Virus record (IMG/VR): IMGVR_UViG_3300049733_000162
Coordinates: 1 to 32,493 of that record
Source of the DNA: a virus
Lineage: Duplodnaviria > Caudoviricetes
Direction: 5' to 3' (one strand)
Length of the DNA stretch: 32,493 nucleotides
Position 1 is the stretch's first letter. Every line of letters starts with the position of its first letter. This document shows, in pieces, positions 7,414 through 23,674 of the stretch. The notes below the pieces were generated by a model. That model saw only the letters and a program-made list of their open reading frames with translations. It had not been told where the DNA came from and ran no database searches. The translations under genes and the position numbers were made by a program.

Positions 7414-7769
7414 ATGACCTCCTGCTTGAACAAGCTCACCTGTACCTCGCCGGTGATACTGCCCACCAGCACGCAGCGTAAGCGTTGATCCTGCGTGACC
7501 TGGATCTTGTTGGGCAGCATCAAATCGTCATTCTTGTTGCTGTCCGTCGCGGCAAACCGCCGCCGCTGGCTCTGCACGGTGGCATCATTGGCCGCATTCC
7601 TGAGCTGCAGGTCGTACACCACAGCCACCGTCGCACTGGCCACCACACCCACGAGGTAATAGCCTCCCCGCAGCGCACTCAATGGCCCCGTGTCGACTAG
7701 CACATCCCCGTTGCTGGGATTGGTGAGCACGTTGCCGGTATGCCATTGCCCGATAAGTGCCGTCGTCAT
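7410..7769 (-). CDS. beta-rich hypothetical (possible virion) protein
   Basis: 119 aa, ATGA-coupled. Confidence 0.6.
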   Translation of the reverse strand: MTTALIGQWHTGNVLTNPSNGDVLVDTGPLSALRGGYYLVGVVASATVAVVYDLQLRNAANDATVQSQRRRFAATDSNKNDDLMLPNKIQVTQDQRLRCVLVGSITGEVQVSLFKQEVM

Positions 7770-7960
7770 GGGCGAGGCTCCGGGAATGGCTTGGGGGTCT
7801 GTCGCACGGTCATGATGCCCTCATGCTCCTCAATCCATTGCATCCACCAGCGGCGAAGGGCTTCACGCCGGGCCAGCCAGGGATCATACTGCATCACGCG
7901 ATAGAGCGCATTCAGCGCGGCGTCATCGATGCCGAGGTGGGTGCAGGTCTCTCGCGTCAT
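7766..7960 (-). CDS. hypothetical protein
   Basis: ATGA overlap with the TerL stop. Confidence 0.5.
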   Translation of the reverse strand: MTRETCTHLGIDDAALNALYRVMQYDPWLARREALRRWWMQWIEEHEGIMTVRQTPKPFPEPRP

Positions 7961-10311
7961 CGTCCCGCCCCCACACCATACGCGGCGGATTTCACCGACA
8001 CCCGCCCTTGCGGCGCACGCTGCTGTCGCACCGGGCGCTCGGTGATGCAGAGATAAGAGGCCCCGTCACTTAAATGGGTCAACTGGCTGTACGGGTCACG
8101 GTGATTGTAGGTCTTCTTGAGCCCACCATGCGGGTCCATCAAGACTTGCTCAAAATCTCGAATCATCGCCACGCACTTGGGGTCGATCAGGATATGGCTC
8201 GCCCCCTGCGCGTCCTTAAAGGCGGCGTTCATGGCGTTCAGGCGATCAACCTCCAACGGATTCGCGGCGGGCACTTTCATCTTGACCGGGCTCGGATACC
8301 GCTGCAAGCGCGACAGGATCAGATCATAGCTGCTCCGCGGCTTCCCGGCTGTCGTATGGCTGCGGTTGCCTCCATTGGCATCGCCATAAATCCAGAGCTC
8401 ATGCGGGTGCCGGGGGTAGCGCCGCTCAAACTCATCGAGCATGGCGTCGATGTTGCCCTCATCGAGCACGATCTCATCGTAGCAATACATCTGATCGGGA
8501 TGCACCTGCCAAAGCGAGGTGCAGAACGGGCTGACGTTAAAGTCCCAGGCCCAGCACAAGGGCCGGTGTGGTGACAGCGGCGGAAGCTTGCGCACATGCA
8601 CGGCGCGGGCAAAGTTCCCATACGCCACGGCGCCTGCAATCCCCGGCAGAATCTCGCCATTCAGTCGAATGCGCCGCGATAGGGAGCCCAATGGGTAGCG
8701 GGATTCAAGCTGCTGAATCTCTTCGCCGCTCAGGTGGGGATTATCGTAGATGCTGGCCTGGAACAGCCCGACATCGGTCACACGGCCTTGAATGATCGGC
8801 TCGAGGATTTCCTGGTACACCCAGGAGATGCTTTCGACATGCCCCTGGGGTGGGAGAATGGTGGCGGTGAAAAACTTGCGAAAGCGCCGTCCCGCGCCGA
8901 TACGGATCAAGAGCTCGTCATAGTGCGGCTTCTTCGGCGGTTCATCGCCATGCAGCCAATCGATCGCCCCGCCTGCGACCTTAAGGGCGTCCTGCTCCCC
9001 CGACTTCCAGCCGATAAACGAGCCGTTGCGCAGCTTGAGGATCTGCGCCTCGACTTCCCACTTCGCAATCTCCCGCTCAGGGATAAAGGGCTCGGGCATC
9101 CCCGGCTTGAGGTAGCCATTGTCGAAGTATCTCGGCTGGATAATGTCGCGGTTCGTATTGCTATCGAGGCCCAGCACCCAGCCCGCCGTAGCCTTGTCCC
9201 GTACGTCCATGCTCGTGCCATCAGGCAAACGGCTGTACGCGGTGCCGACCGGCTCAGGAAGGCCCTGCCGGGCCAGCGTGGCACCACAGTACGCCCCGAC
9301 GCTCGTGTTGTGGTGCAGCACGCCTGATGCCCAATAGCAATGTGTCCCTTGTACCTCAAAGTCTACTATTGGACGTAAACCGATTTTCTGGTATGCTATT
9401 AGCCTACAACCACCCACCAGGAGGATCGGCCATGGCAATACGTGCCAATCGTTGCTACCGTACCACGCAAGACCTTGAATCTCGTGGTATTGCTGTTCTG
9501 TTGGAGCAGGGCTTGACCCGTCGTCAGGTCGCTGAATCTCTTCATTGCCACAAGTCGACGGTCGATAAGTGGTGTCAGAAGCATCAGTGGTCCACAGGGC
9601 GAACAGGGCCGAGAGCAGGTGAGGGTCATCCCTCGTGGAATGGGGGAAGGCGCCTAGACAAGCACGGATACGTTCAGGTGTGGGCACCGTTACATCCACA
9701 ATCTCACCAGGATGGCTATGTGTATGAGCACCGCTTGCTAGCAGAGGTCTTGCTATGGCGCTATCTTCGGACGGAGGAAGTTGTAGACCATATTGACGAC
9801 TGGCCCTATCATAATTGGCCTGATAATCTTCGTCTCTTTCCGTCCAACGCGGATCACCTATCCTGGACAACAAGCTACCGACCGCAATCCACCCGGCGCG
9901 GGTCAATACCCGGTGCCTATACGTCGCCTCAAAAGCTTCCCCAGTGTCCAGATGCAGACGCAACGCTGGCTCAATGCTCCGCAGAAATACGGCAGAGGCT
10001 TGACTGGCACATCGAGTCACACCGTCCCAGGATTGAACATCGAAACTTGCCTCGCCGATCATTTCGGCAGGTAGGCGCGTGGCGGAACCCATTTCCACGG
10101 GTGTCCATGGGGTAAGACACTTGCCCACACGATTGGCGCCCACGAACCAATTTTCCCAGTGGCCCCCGTCCTCCGGGTGCAGCACGCTCTGGATAAAGGG
10201 CTGATGCACAATGAGCGGCTGCCACAGGCGCAACGGGTCGCTGGCCTGACGTTGGGCCAAGGTGAGACTGGCGATGCGCTGGAGGAGTTGCAGCTCTTCT
10301 GCCGTCGGCAT
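7957..10311 (-). CDS. terL: terminase large subunit containing an intein
   Basis: Walker A GANRVGK|T split by the intein; Walker B WLHGDEPP; SIYDNPHL; nuclease WAWDFNVSP...HLSDGASY. Confidence 0.9.
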   Translation of the reverse strand: MPTAEELQLLQRIASLTLAQRQASDPLRLWQPLIVHQPFIQSVLHPEDGGHWENWFVGANRVGKCLTPWTPVEMGSATRLPAEMIGEASFDVQSWDGVTRCASQASAVFLRSIEPALRLHLDTGEAFEATYRHRVLTRAGWIAVGSLLSRIGDPRWTERDEDYQANYDRASRQYGLQLPPSEDSAIARPLLASGAHTHSHPGEIVDVTVPTPERIRACLGAFPHSTRDDPHLLSALFALWTTDASDTTYRPSTCGNEEIQRPDDGSSPAPTEQQYHEIQGLAWYGSNDWHVLPWPILLVGGCRLIAYQKIGLRPIVDFEVQGTHCYWASGVLHHNTSVGAYCGATLARQGLPEPVGTAYSRLPDGTSMDVRDKATAGWVLGLDSNTNRDIIQPRYFDNGYLKPGMPEPFIPEREIAKWEVEAQILKLRNGSFIGWKSGEQDALKVAGGAIDWLHGDEPPKKPHYDELLIRIGAGRRFRKFFTATILPPQGHVESISWVYQEILEPIIQGRVTDVGLFQASIYDNPHLSGEEIQQLESRYPLGSLSRRIRLNGEILPGIAGAVAYGNFARAVHVRKLPPLSPHRPLCWAWDFNVSPFCTSLWQVHPDQMYCYDEIVLDEGNIDAMLDEFERRYPRHPHELWIYGDANGGNRSHTTAGKPRSSYDLILSRLQRYPSPVKMKVPAANPLEVDRLNAMNAAFKDAQGASHILIDPKCVAMIRDFEQVLMDPHGGLKKTYNHRDPYSQLTHLSDGASYLCITERPVRQQRAPQGRVSVKSAAYGVGAGR
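9369..9397 (+). promoter_or_regulatory. sigma70-type promoter inside the intein, antisense to terL
   Basis: TTGGAC-N17-TATGCT with TG extension; AGGAGG at 9419-9424. Confidence 0.65.
9432..10115 (+). CDS. HNH endonuclease encoded antisense within the intein
   Basis: HTH (GLTRRQVAESLHCHKSTV), GEGHPSWNGGR, GYVYEHRLLAE...VVDHIDDWPYHNWPDNLRLF...H; AGGAGG-N7-ATG. Confidence 0.85.
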   Translation: MAIRANRCYRTTQDLESRGIAVLLEQGLTRRQVAESLHCHKSTVDKWCQKHQWSTGRTGPRAGEGHPSWNGGRRLDKHGYVQVWAPLHPQSHQDGYVYEHRLLAEVLLWRYLRTEEVVDHIDDWPYHNWPDNLRLFPSNADHLSWTTSYRPQSTRRGSIPGAYTSPQKLPQCPDADATLAQCSAEIRQRLDWHIESHRPRIEHRNLPRRSFRQVGAWRNPFPRVSMG

Positions 10312-10454
10312 CAAGGCTTCTCCACCACGGGCCCCAACGTGCCCCCAAGTCGGGTCGCCGCGGGCCTCTTCAGCAGCAACAGCTCATTAAACGCCTGCAA
10401 GATGAGCTGTTGCCCTCGCAAAAAGGTGGCTTGAATCCGCTCCAGGTCGGTCAC
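10311..10454 (-). CDS. small hypothetical protein
   Basis: GTGA and TGATG coupling on both sides; (M)TDLERIQATF. Confidence 0.5.
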   Translation of the reverse strand: MTDLERIQATFLRGQQLILQAFNELLLLKRPAATRLGGTLGPVVEKP

Positions 10455-10801
10455 GGCTTCGTCTGCGGCACGCCGAACGCCCCGCCCAAGCTGGACGCCT
10501 GATTGATCACATGCAGCGTAACCACCTCGCTGATATGCTGCACGCCGGCGCCCAGGTCCACATCCGCCTCGACGCTGTAGGCCGTATCCACGGGGCCAGC
10601 CTCGCCGTCGGGCAGAGTGTCGGAGACGAGAAACATCTGATAGCCGGCAGGCTTCGACGCATCCCAGGCGGGATGGAGCGGATCGTCCAACAGCGTGCCA
10701 TTGCCACTGACCACGGTCCACACCGGCACACCATCCAGTGGGCCATCGGGGTTGAGCGTGTAAAGCACCATCTGTGTATCACCAATCGTCGCTTCCGGCA
10801 T
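10451..10801 (-). CDS. hypothetical beta-rich protein
   Basis: GGGGAG RBS, MPEATIGD... Confidence 0.6.
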   Translation of the reverse strand: MPEATIGDTQMVLYTLNPDGPLDGVPVWTVVSGNGTLLDDPLHPAWDASKPAGYQMFLVSDTLPDGEAGPVDTAYSVEADVDLGAGVQHISEVVTLHVINQASSLGGAFGVPQTKP

Positions 10802-10820
10802 GGCGTTCTCCCCTGTGTGA

Positions 10821-11243
10821 CTACGCCGCACTCCCCGGCAACAGGCGCAACGCGCCGTCGGTGTCCCTGGCTTCCATGGCGGACAGAAATGCGCCGAGCT
10901 CCAGGTCACTGAGACTCAGTAAGACGCTGATATGGGTCTGGGTAATGTTCAGGTCGACCGTCTCTTTGGGCTTGCCCCAGAGGTGTTCGGCAAAGAATTT
11001 TTCCATGTGGGGCGCATCGCCGGCCTTGAGGCGAATAGCGAGGGCTTTAAGGTACTCGGGTTGTTGCAGCAGCTCAGCCGCCATCTCCTTGATGGGAATG
11101 ACTTCGAGGGTGGCACGGCTCACGGAGCCTTTAGGTCTGCCAGGGCCAGGCATGCCCTGACCAAACCGTCCGTTCGACAGCCGAATAGGAGGCTTGGGAA
11201 CGATCCGTTTTCGACCGTTTGAGGGCCGTTTGTCGGACGCCAA
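10821..11243 (-). CDS. probable terminase small subunit
   Basis: GRFGQGMPGPGRPKGS and LWGKPKETVDL motifs; first gene after a consensus promoter, upstream of terL. Confidence 0.6.
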   Translation of the reverse strand: MASDKRPSNGRKRIVPKPPIRLSNGRFGQGMPGPGRPKGSVSRATLEVIPIKEMAAELLQQPEYLKALAIRLKAGDAPHMEKFFAEHLWGKPKETVDLNITQTHISVLLSLSDLELGAFLSAMEARDTDGALRLLPGSAA

Positions 11244-11278
11244 CCATCTAACTCCGCGAATTTTGGCAGGTATGAGCG

Positions 11279-11307
11279 AGTATACGGCAGGATATGCGAG
11301 ATGTCAA
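11279..11307 (-). promoter_or_regulatory. sigma70 promoter of the packaging operon
   Basis: TTGACA-N17-TATACT. Confidence 0.75.
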
Positions 11308-11335
11308 GAATGATGAAAGCAGACATGGCGTCTGC

Positions 11336-11884
11336 CTAGCGGGTCATCGAGCGCCAGGCGGTGAGGGTGCCATCAGGGCCAAAGCGCAGCATGAGCACCT
11401 GTCGATCCTCGTCCACCATCGTCTGGACGCCGGCACCCGCGGAGAGGCCAGCCATGGCACCGCCCCAGACGCCCGTGGTCGGACCCTGATAGGCCGGATA
11501 CGGGCGATAGCTGTAGGCGCTCGTCTCTGAGCGCTCCCAGGCGAGGAGCGTGTCAGATCCCAAATGTCGCTCATAGGTGGGAGGCCCCAGGCGCATCAGC
11601 GCCTCATCCATCGTCAGGCGTCCCACAGCGGCATCCATGTTCGCCTCAAAGCGTGAGGTGGCGCAGCCAGCGACGAGCACGACCAACATCAACACCATGA
11701 GCGGTAACCACATCAACCGAGACACGAGACGCTGGACCCGATGCCGCACACACCAGGCCTCAATGGTGTCACCCCACAGGGACGCCGTGGTGATCATGGC
11801 GAATCCCATCACCACAAACGCCCAGGCCCACCACGGGGCCATCTGCATGTTATTGAGCACAGATCTCAGCACATCCGTCAGCAT
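11336..11884 (-). CDS. membrane protein/lipoprotein (possible superinfection exclusion)
   Basis: two hydrophobic segments, lipobox-like LVAGC; function inferred from position only. Confidence 0.55.
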   Translation of the reverse strand: MLTDVLRSVLNNMQMAPWWAWAFVVMGFAMITTASLWGDTIEAWCVRHRVQRLVSRLMWLPLMVLMLVVLVAGCATSRFEANMDAAVGRLTMDEALMRLGPPTYERHLGSDTLLAWERSETSAYSYRPYPAYQGPTTGVWGGAMAGLSAGAGVQTMVDEDRQVLMLRFGPDGTLTAWRSMTR

Positions 11885-12459: not shown

Positions 12460-13615
12460 GGGCTCCTGACACCCAACTCGCCGGTCACAGAATAGGTCAC
12501 AGGTCGTATGCTCATTCTTCCACAATGCCAGGCACCATTTGTTGAGCCAGATGCTCACGCCCTAGCTCACACCCTCCTGATCAAGCGATGCGGGCAGGCG
12601 TGTGGCCGCATCGAGGCGATGGATCGCCTGGCGTTCATGCTCCACGCTCGGATGCGTATAGGCGGCGGTCATCGTGATTGTCGCGTGCCCGAGCCAGCGT
12701 TGCAGGGTTGGCAAGTCGACGCCGGCCTCGATGGCTCGGGTGGCAAACGTGTGGCGACAACTGTGGGGTGTGATCGCCAGATCCAGCCCCGCCCGCTCCA
12801 CCGCCCGCCGAAACATCGTCCGAATACTCTTGTAGCCAAAGATACGGCTGTCGCGGCCGTGCATGGGGAGGTGTGCCAGCACCTCCCGAGCCGTGCGATT
12901 CAAGGGCACCTGTCGTGCCCGTCCGCTCTTGGCCACATCGACGCCTACCTGTACCAGACCCGCCTTGAAATCCAGATCATCCCAGCGCAAAGCCATCAGC
13001 TCCCCGAGGCGAAGGCCCGTATGCAACGCAAAGCGCGTCAGCAGGGCCAATCGGCTCGGCATGGCGGCGAGCAGCGCGGTCTCTTCTGCCAGGCTGATGA
13101 TCCGTCGTGGAGCCTGCCGGGTGCGCAGATTCCGCACCGTGGGAATGCGCTCCAACACGCCCCACTGACCCGCCACTTTGAGGGCGTGTTTGATCGGCGT
13201 CAGGTAGACGTTGATCGTGCTCGGCGTCAGGCCCCGATGCAACCAGGTCGTCTGCAGCAAGGCCAGCGTTTCCCCGGTGATCGCGGTGAGGGGCATCTCG
13301 CCCAACACCTCACAGGCGAGGCGAAAGGCGACGTCAGCCACGCGCACCGTGTTGGGCCGGCGTTGCGGCTCCCACCAGCGCTGAAAACGTCGGAGAAACT
13401 CCGCGAACGACGTCATCTGCGGTGGCGGCGGTCTGAGGATACCCTCGGCTACCTCCACCCGGCGTTTACGCTCGGCTTGCAGCGCCGTCTGATAGCTCAC
13501 CGGGCCAAGGGATTGGCGATAGCGTTTCCCACGAAACCGAAAATCGTATTGATACGAGTGGCCACGTCGGTACACAGCCATGATGGTCCTCCTACGTTCG
13601 GCGCGTCAGGAGCCC
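12460..13615. repeat. 11-bp inverted repeats flanking the recombinase gene
   Basis: GGGCTCCTGAC 12460-12470 and GTCAGGAGCCC 13605-13615; GGTCACAG direct repeat at 12483 and 12495. Confidence 0.65.
12562..13581 (-). CDS. int: tyrosine recombinase/integrase
   Basis: HTGLRLGEL, KSGRAR, HSCRHTFAT, LGHATITMTAAY; N-terminal arm-binding-like segment; AGGAGG RBS. Confidence 0.92.
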   Translation of the reverse strand: MAVYRRGHSYQYDFRFRGKRYRQSLGPVSYQTALQAERKRRVEVAEGILRPPPPQMTSFAEFLRRFQRWWEPQRRPNTVRVADVAFRLACEVLGEMPLTAITGETLALLQTTWLHRGLTPSTINVYLTPIKHALKVAGQWGVLERIPTVRNLRTRQAPRRIISLAEETALLAAMPSRLALLTRFALHTGLRLGELMALRWDDLDFKAGLVQVGVDVAKSGRARQVPLNRTAREVLAHLPMHGRDSRIFGYKSIRTMFRRAVERAGLDLAITPHSCRHTFATRAIEAGVDLPTLQRWLGHATITMTAAYTHPSVEHERQAIHRLDAATRLPASLDQEGVS

Positions 13616-13771
13616 AAAACCATCATATCGGTGCATCGGCGTGGCGTCTAGAGGGTGCGCTCCAGGCCAGGGATGGGAGGCTCGTGCTGGGCACCTTGGC
13701 AGGCACCAGCGCGAGTTGAAGAGCGCCGGGGGGCGCCACCTGGCCTGGGGTGCATCGGGAAGGGAGAGGGC

Positions 13772-22969: not shown

Positions 22970-23674
22970 CTACGGCCCTGGGCGCACGCCCAAGCGCTGC
23001 AAGAGCCACGGAATCAGCACCGCCGTCAGCATCGCCCCGATCGCCGCAATCACCTTGCCTACCATGCCCCACTTGCCCTTCTCGCGCTCGGCTTGCCGGG
23101 CGCTGAGTTGGGCTTGCAACAACTCCAGCTTGGTCTGTAGCGCCCCGATATCCTCTTCATCTTGCGCCCGCCTAGCTTCAGTCACGGCCAGTTGCTCCCG
23201 CACCTGGCGCAGCTCTTTGATCTCGCGCTGCAGTTGCTCTACGGCTTTCGCATTCTGGCTCATCGACAGGAGTTGTTGTTGTTGGGCTTGATGGCGCGCC
23301 ACGGCGAAGAGCATCGCCTCCCGTAACAGCCGCTCGGCAATCTCCGGCTCCATCGCGGCATCAGGTTTGAATACACAACTCACCGCCCCCTGGCGAATCA
23401 GCGAGGCGGCGTAGGCCGGATAATGGAGGGCGGTATAGACCATCACCGCGGTCTGCGGGCAGACTTCCAAGACTTTGGTGAGGGCATCACCGTTCGTGGT
23501 GCCGGGCATGCGGAGATCGGTGAGAATCAAATCGTATTCCTCAGCCTCAGCCGCGCCAATCCCCTCGGCCAGGCCGCAGGCATAGGTCAACGTGGCCCCC
23601 TCGGGAATGGCCTGTTGCACCATCGTAAACGCCTCGATATCGTCGTCTATCAAGAGAATTTTTATTGTATTCAA
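22970..23674 (-). CDS. receiver (REC) domain + coiled coil + C-terminal TM protein; start codon uncertain
   Basis: KILLIDDD, YDLILTDLRMPG, VMVYT, VFKP; WGMVGKVIAAIGAMLTAVLIPWLL. Confidence 0.8.
   Translation of the reverse strand: MNTIKILLIDDDIEAFTMVQQAIPEGATLTYACGLAEGIGAAEAEEYDLILTDLRMPGTTNGDALTKVLEVCPQTAVMVYTALHYPAYAASLIRQGAVSCVFKPDAAMEPEIAERLLREAMLFAVARHQAQQQQLLSMSQNAKAVEQLQREIKELRQVREQLAVTEARRAQDEEDIGALQTKLELLQAQLSARQAEREKGKWGMVGKVIAAIGAMLTAVLIPWLLQRLGVRPGP

Follow-up and report, generated by a model that had tools for sequence, protein, structure and literature searches.

Inteins paired with a nuclease that is not read in their own frame have been described before. The main text of a preprint by Gosselin, Arsenault and Gogarten (bioRxiv 10.1101/2025.01.02.630785) distinguishes inteins with in-frame HNH, anti-sense LAGLIDADG, anti-sense VSR-like and frame-3 endonuclease VII-like nucleases, proposes that inteins were invaded by free-standing nucleases with signs of continued invasion, and cites Gorbalenya 1998, Gogarten 2002 (the Synechocystis dnaX and Chloroflexus cases) and Dassa 2009. 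The ShiLan domain, as described in PMC11855218, is a stop-free insertion in a phage methylase; another of its reading frames conceals an HNH nuclease, and there are signs of homing. Here we describe the terminase large subunit gene (terL) of virus record IMGVR_UViG_3300049733_000162 (32,493 bases, the whole of which is the window analysed), whose intein carries on its opposite strand a gene for a helix-turn-helix (HTH) and HNH protein. We consider it very probable that the record holds a terminase intein accompanied by a separate, selected antisense HTH-HNH gene, which is its likely homing nuclease.

The intein and the gene on its opposite strand

The features of the locus are given below, with lengths in amino acids (aa) and the local confidence (pLDDT) of structure models.

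7957-10314 (-): terL, 785 aa with the intein and 514 aa without it; PHROG terminase large subunit, E=1e-7
9307-10119 (-): TerL intein, 271 aa, C1 ... T66-x-x-H69 ... D253 ... H270-N271, then Thr; after the GK of Walker A (site b)
9307-9447 (-): C-terminal splicing region, about aa 225-271 of the intein; pLDDT 80-98; its antisense strand holds the nuclease start signals
9850-10119 (-): N-terminal splicing region, about aa 1-90 of the intein; pLDDT 85-97; DnaB-intein model match over aa 3-91; overlapped by the nuclease tail
9432-10115 (+): antisense HTH-HNH gene, 227 aa plus TAA
9474-9596 (+): HTH domain, aa 15-55; Pfam HTH_23, E=1.1e-6
9600-9869 (+): HNH (His-Me finger) core, aa 57-146, with D119-H120, N128, N132, N139 and H142
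9870-10112 (+): C-terminal tail, aa 147-227, backing intein blocks A and B; pLDDT mostly 84-97
9389-9402 (+): predicted extended -10 region; family box TG-n-TAnnnT at 9394-9402; this copy TGCTATTAG, overlapping TGGTATGCT
9419-9424 (+): Shine-Dalgarno sequence AGGAGG, 7 nt before the ATG

A class 1 intein begins with Cys or Ser, carries T-x-x-H in block B and Asp in block F, and ends in His-Asn before a Cys, Ser or Thr. The 813-bp insert at 9307-10119 (-), which runs from Cys to His-Asn between GANRVGK and TSVG, has all of these (C1, T66/H69, D253, H270-N271 and a +1 Thr), and C1, H69, D253, H270 and N271 were invariant across 69 aligned intein members. It lies in frame in a conserved motif of which empty alleles exist (see below), as a class 1 intein should. 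Its profile matched the solved DnaB, RecA and DnaE inteins (best E=6.9e-17), while Pfam Intein_splicing gave no match for this copy and matched 27 of the 69 members. The AlphaFold2 model was confident over aa 1-90 and about 225-271, with pLDDT <50 at aa 102-159 and 184-205, and matched HINT folds including the DnaB and RecA inteins (Foldseek, 24 at E<=0.001; best quoted E=1.2e-6), so that a HINT fold is built from both ends. Judged from sequence and model, the insert is an intein that is predicted to splice. Its sense-strand centre matched nothing in Pfam, PHROG or NCBIfam and is a linker without selection in the intein frame. The sequence-only reading of this DNA, which had described intact splicing blocks around a centre lacking a LAGLIDADG or HNH motif, was thus borne out.

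The same reading had assigned to the other strand an HTH-HNH open reading frame (ORF) at 9432-10115, with its stop 4 nt inside the N-terminal junction. Both the frame and its stop are there in the sequence: the ORF spans intein aa 2-229, codon position 1 opposite position 1, and profile scans of both strands found an HTH by Pfam and an HNH by PHROG on the plus strand, and no domain in the sense-strand linker. The PHROG matches over the core were HNH families (best E=1.7e-19 over aa 70-148) or families of unknown function, and both these matches and the motif are HNH, not LAGLIDADG or VSR/EDxHD. In the I-HmuI/HNH_3 group of His-Me finger nucleases, as defined in the part of PMC5714182 that treats it, the catalytic His ends strand 1, an Asn lies in the loop and a His or Asn starts the helix; in the model of the 227-aa protein, which has this pattern, strand 117-120 closes with H120 after D119, the loop holds N128 and N132, and helix 139-148 opens with N139. 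A protein search with the nuclease gave 87 matches, 63 of which were 47-77% identical over no less than 83% of the query, and H120, N128, N132, N139 and H142 were invariant in all 63. PF13392 was precomputed on nine of these 63 full-length homologues. Many relatives have a second HTH-like segment, together with longer inteins (310-326 vs 265-285 aa).

Loci were gathered with the homologue alignment from three collections, two of which gave the best 80 of 231 and the best 80 of 88. The opposite frame was open in the same phase in 136/136 close loci, whereas the other two phases were open over the core in 29 and 3 of the 136. Since only 2/28 distant HNH loci had such a same-phase open frame, the arrangement is more than chance. 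A second scan, seeded with 14 shorter relatives (best 80 of 575 loci, being 69 distinct cores and partly overlapping the first set), gave a same-phase open frame in 80/80, with the C-terminal end His-Asn in 72 and Lys-Asn or Arg-Asn in 8. An Arg-Asn or Lys-Asn end in place of His-Asn was seen in the family inteins at loci L181, L241, L242, L244, L245, L247, L248 and L250. Two other scans, one of viral sequences with a single protein and one with the C-extein, gave nothing beyond identical copies.

Among 89 distinct loci, 12 were left out for truncated or unresolved junctions, and the remaining 77 formed 72 clusters at 95%. The full catalytic motif was present in 73 of the 77, and the other four differed solely before the catalytic His, where they have Asn. 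In 63 loci (the long class) the ORF reaches the N-junction, with the stop 4 nt inside it in 38, and in 14 (the short class) it stops 76-205 nt earlier. All resolved insertions fell within a Walker A motif in TerL-like proteins, where they use two sites that are three codons apart: site a, before [STC]GK, is the majority, and site b, after GK, is used by the record, by L006 and by 4/14 of the short class. In a 63-row FastTree tree, in which L001, L006 and L007 were unresolved, site b was not one supported clade, so that retargeting between the sites may have happened once or more than once. At L037, L065, L114, L117, L118, L191 and L253 the open frame of the host reached 1120-1205 aa, some 300 aa more than in relatives; a second insertion or an in-frame extension at the upstream end probably accounts for the extra length. 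Near-same elements occurred at L082 and L083 in bins labelled Chitinophagaceae and Accumulibacter, and the bin labels therefore do not identify the host.

Selection was measured frame by frame as omega, the ratio of nonsynonymous to synonymous change, from uncorrected substitution counts over 21 disjoint pairs that were up to 36% divergent and included some near-copies in different pairs. In the C-terminal region omega was 1.06 in the nuclease frame and 0.14 in the intein frame; in the HTH the values were 0.22 and 1.38, and in the HNH core 0.07 and 0.40. Nucleotide entropy followed the same course, peaking at the intein wobble position in the C-terminal region and at the nuclease wobble position in the centre, and was flat in the tail. 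The selected frame is thus that of the intein at the C-terminal end and that of the nuclease in the centre, and both in the tail (see below). This frame-specific selection, together with the shared phase, bears out the earlier proposal that the two open frames are more than a mirror shadow; for the nuclease core, a shadow is ruled out. Sequence comparison supports a genuine antisense HTH-HNH gene that is under selection and carries start signals of its own.

Empty alleles, cultured carriers and mobility

An intein-less terL allele was found. Seven further runs were compared, in which regions without cover carry no weight. Exactly 813 bases are skipped, with 9306 joined to 10120, by contigs of two runs: X4, a soil metatranscriptome, and X10, which is aquatic and probably DNA. 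The borders of the intein are thereby confirmed in DNA. These contigs share eight differences at 9247-9276, amounting to one amino-acid change; they therefore stem from a different genotype whose terL has no intein, rather than from spliced RNA. The empty contig of X4 ends at the same positions (9217 and 10174) as contigs of the occupied allele, which suggests that empty and occupied alleles in X4 share a near-identical background. One X10 contig also joins both sides of 9919-10073, with 153 bases skipped, 40 letters on its short side and 80% likeness; it may be a deletion variant or another organism.

Most of the nearest TerLs lack the insert. The closest TerL homologues are 482-539 aa long, many of them annotated as terminase large subunit. 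Of the 120 nearest TerLs listed, 114 had an uninterrupted N[RQ]xGK[TS] motif and two more an uninterrupted variant (116/120 without the insert); the rest were two with a related intein three codons upstream, one fragment of the protein itself and one without the region. Eleven of the uninterrupted proteins were 56-71% identical, whereas the exteins of the nearest intein-bearing relatives were at 47% and 42%. This patchy presence, with two insertion sites, supports mobility.

Cultured carriers were found by tblastn of GenBank phages, in which eight Ymer-type Pectobacterium/Dickeya genomes matched nuclease aa 29-148 at about 40-42%. In Ymer, Sabo and Taid, the three examined, TerL is a 754-aa protein annotated as 'hypothetical protein', and the nuclease match is inside its gene on the other strand. 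The intein there has 288 aa and interrupts TerL at AGFG|TGKS, and an antisense 232-aa ORF starts at codon 42 behind TATACT. The 232-aa gene is unannotated in all three (L170, L171 and L173), and the main text of the genus paper (PMC11445585) contains no occurrence of intein, HNH or endonuclease. Since these phages are viable with Walker A interrupted, their intein presumably splices. The Ymer-type nuclease tail differs in sequence from that of the record and stops 40 nt inside, which, on sequence, suggests a separate overprinting event. Escherichia phage KW1E_UTAR, the nearest relative of the Ymer-type phages, has an empty terL. Ymer and Taid differ at 40/867 intein bases and 144/1248 C-extein bases; the lower divergence of the intein could be explained by dual coding or by later transfer.

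The nuclease might instead be kept for a phage function, such as aiding terminase packaging or damaging competitors at terL, the intein being just its carrier and homing incidental. HNH proteins that aid terminases are known (described in PMC11855218), the selection on the nuclease is both strong and old, the divergence of inteins and that of exteins vary together, and all eight Ymer-type genomes match the nuclease. We nevertheless regard this explanation as unlikely: 116 of the 120 listed nearest TerLs do without the insert, an empty allele occurs beside an occupied one, and HTH modules joined to an HNH are, in the account of PMC5714182, the homing type of the I-HmuI group.

Start signals, the probably overprinted tail and neighbouring genes

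The AGGAGG-N7-ATG described by the earlier reading is present, and the Shine-Dalgarno core occurred in 47/74 members, compared with 7.5% of control windows. An ORF finder begins the frame at an upstream ATG, 9327; we prefer the start at 9432 because 55/63 members have the nuclease ATG at codon 42-43, counted from the C-junction. The promoter that had been proposed, TTGGAC-N17-TATGCT at 9369-9397, fared less well. Its letters are present, but it has 7/12 consensus letters and was not called in a sigma-70 scan, and the family does not conserve it: TTGGAC occurs in 1/63 members and TATGCT in 3/63. What the family does conserve is a -10-like box 5 nt downstream of the proposed -10, with TG at 9394-9395 and a hexamer at 9397-9402; TAnnnT occupied this fixed site in 36/63 members, with TG in 25. 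The intein codon opposite TA was the rare xTA in 37/45 (background 23%), and that opposite TG was GCA in 21/45 (background 14%), comparisons whose p-values are overstated by the relatedness of the members. The nuclease would thus be transcribed from an extended -10 promoter placed in synonymous codons of the C-terminal splicing strands.

That a conserved -10-like box is directed against terL, and that no plus-strand terminator-like site was called in 8500-11500, would also fit an antisense unit that is mainly regulatory, its transcript or its HTH protein dampening terL or terS. Regulation does not need the invariant catalytic residues, and the unstranded contigs gave no RNA-level support for it; we judge it very unlikely.

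The tail, which lies opposite the N-terminal splicing region, was conserved in both frames, with omega 0.33 (0.21-0.47) in the nuclease frame and 0.29 (0.17-0.43) in the intein frame. In a re-count of 17 of the pairs, aligned in the intein frame with five that had short exteins left out, the values were 0.37 and 0.31, whereas the same shadow frame of the C-extein, used as control, gave 1.19 (0.93-1.58) against 0.17 for the extein itself. In this comparison, intein-synonymous changes fell from 0.56 to 0.19 per site. An end-to-end match to the tail was found only for the top 15 of the 150 50%-clusters listed. The aligned sequences point to selection in both frames on this 80-aa tail, which overlaps the N-terminal splicing blocks. 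It fits a clade-specific overprinted extension, and its function is likely DNA binding or stability. The dual-selected tail, the large family with two Walker A sites and the cultured carriers go beyond what the sequence-only reading had proposed.

A further possibility is that the plus-strand ORF, or at least its tail, passively mirrors the intein. Some conservation would follow simply from the position of the tail opposite conserved splicing blocks, and the tail's openness in the long class is circular, as the class is defined by the position of the ORF stop. Opposite the extein, however, 4.2% of codons in the shadow frame are stops, and opposite the N-terminal region of the short class 3.2% (35/1078) are, from which the chance of an open 77-codon tail is about 0.04, and both the contrast with the extein shadow and the loss of intein-synonymous change speak for selection. 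We therefore consider a passive shadow highly improbable. The idea that the insert is removed from RNA as an intron carrying an HNH gene, to which the RNA-library contig joining 9306 to 10120 could point, can practically be dismissed, given the eight other letters of that contig, the same form in the probable DNA of X10, and the invariant and selected catalytic residues of the intein.

Elsewhere in the record, portal, integrase, D5-type primase, RecT and SLT proteins are encoded; terL lies in the head-gene module, in the same phage record as the integrase gene. Directly downstream of terL, 191 bases (7765-7955) are absent from one contig of run X2, which removes a 64-aa ORF (7766-7960); this contig is likely a variant missing a small accessory gene. 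A 403-aa ORF at 12508-13719 (+), without a Pfam match, lies antisense to the integrase (12562-13581, -) and may be a high-GC shadow. The phage also encodes a protein with a response-regulator receiver domain (22970-23674, -; E=2e-12).

Proposed history and comparison with described systems

A free-standing HTH-HNH gene would most likely have entered a TerL mini-intein once, in antisense, and in this clade the nuclease would then have grown by overprinting across the N-terminal splicing blocks. Splicing of the TerL precursor would be that of a class 1 intein in spite of an unstructured linker, which is just the back of the nuclease gene. When a co-infecting or resident phage has terL without the intein, the nuclease would nick or cut it at or near Walker A, and the whole 813-bp element would then be copied by repair. 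I-HmuI nicks one strand instead of cutting both, and nicking by the 227-aa protein is our guess by analogy with it. A fuller reading, which we hold to have an even chance, would make this a widespread lineage of two working enzymes on opposite strands, with a new, folded 80-residue domain gained by the HNH homing nuclease through overprinting on the catalytic blocks A and B, a promoter and ribosome site in synonymous codons of the other splicing half, nuclease and splicing domain thereby inseparable, and a target moved by three codons within Walker A.

Several observations weigh against a homing nuclease in this form. Pfam HNH gave no match for the 227-aa protein at E<=0.01. Foldseek of its model gave no match at E<=0.001, with I-HmuI (PDB 1u3e) at E=2.0, and a PDB profile search did not recover I-HmuI at E<=1, both results being dominated by HTH matches. 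The structural match to I-HmuI was weak (VIA Z 4.6, rmsd 3.9, 82 aligned), although it was the sole nuclease among 50 listed rows. The record's copy is without the last T of the family -10 box, but has the overlapping TG-n-TATGCT, and the RNA runs are contigs without strand or level. The omega counts are crude, as described above, and the intein-frame value of the HNH core is probably spill-over; nevertheless, the selection controls acted as expected. Near-identical inteins were found mostly in near-identical exteins, and the sole hint of a recent jump was the pair L017/L092, with inteins 100% identical and exteins 84-88% over 50-57 aa, so that the evidence for recent homing is modest.

With the anti-sense LAGLIDADG and VSR-like inteins, as the preprint's main text presents them, the element has in common a contiguous intein, a separate nuclease ORF on the opposite strand and an unstructured in-frame centre, that is, the architecture of inteins with an anti-sense homing endonuclease (HEN) gene. 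It also shares with the inteins of bioRxiv 10.1101/2025.01.02.630785 a terminase host, a patchy distribution and the model of invasion by a free-standing HEN. The earlier suggestion that an antisense HNH invaded a mini-intein is thus plausible and agrees with the model put forward there for the anti-sense groups, but the architecture itself is not new. Unlike in those groups, the nuclease here is an HTH-HNH, whereas HNH is listed in the preprint's main text in frame only; the promoter and ribosome site are embedded, where 'promoter' does not occur in that text; and the element is found outside actinophages. In the anti-sense groups as described there, the secondary ORF typically lies outside the splicing domain, whereas here it covers intein aa 2-229.

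Like the ShiLan domain, the element hides an HNH gene in another frame of an insertion within a phage gene, but ShiLan, according to its description, is on the same strand in frame 3, with zinc fingers, in a methylase and without a splicing domain, whereas here the gene is opposite a HINT domain. The I-HmuI/HNH_3 group (group 2 in PMC5714182; PDB 1u3e) shares the His after the Asp ending strand 1, the loop Asn, the helix Asn and HTH-type modules; the record's protein differs from it in an N-terminal HTH, in a tail unmatched outside the clade and in being carried antisense to an intein, not in an intron or free-standing. In-frame HNH inteins (gyrase B and dCTP deaminase; group 22 in PMC5714182) also pair an HNH with a splicing domain, but as described there the nuclease lies within the intein polypeptide, whereas here it is a separate gene. 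Neither an antisense HNH intein nor a dual-coded splicing domain was found in the literature searched, although subscription papers, InBase or the preprint's supplements may hold an example of the former.

The record's element resembles the antisense-nuclease inteins already known, yet it fits into neither of the groups described so far, LAGLIDADG or VSR-like, and HNH joins the nuclease types paired with inteins from the opposite strand. Elements of this kind form a large terminase intein family and not a rarity, and would be filed as decayed or mini-inteins. The family offers sequence-based, population-level evidence that antisense intein nucleases are selected and have expression signals of their own, where the preprint, in its main text, argued activity from distribution. 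The tail is a candidate de novo domain from antisense overprinting on the catalytic blocks of an enzyme, and the cultured Ymer-type carriers make expression and homing of antisense intein nucleases directly testable. What is new, in an antisense-nuclease architecture already known, is that the nuclease is an HNH, that the N-terminal splicing region is dual-coded, that the start signals are embedded and that there are tractable cultured carriers.

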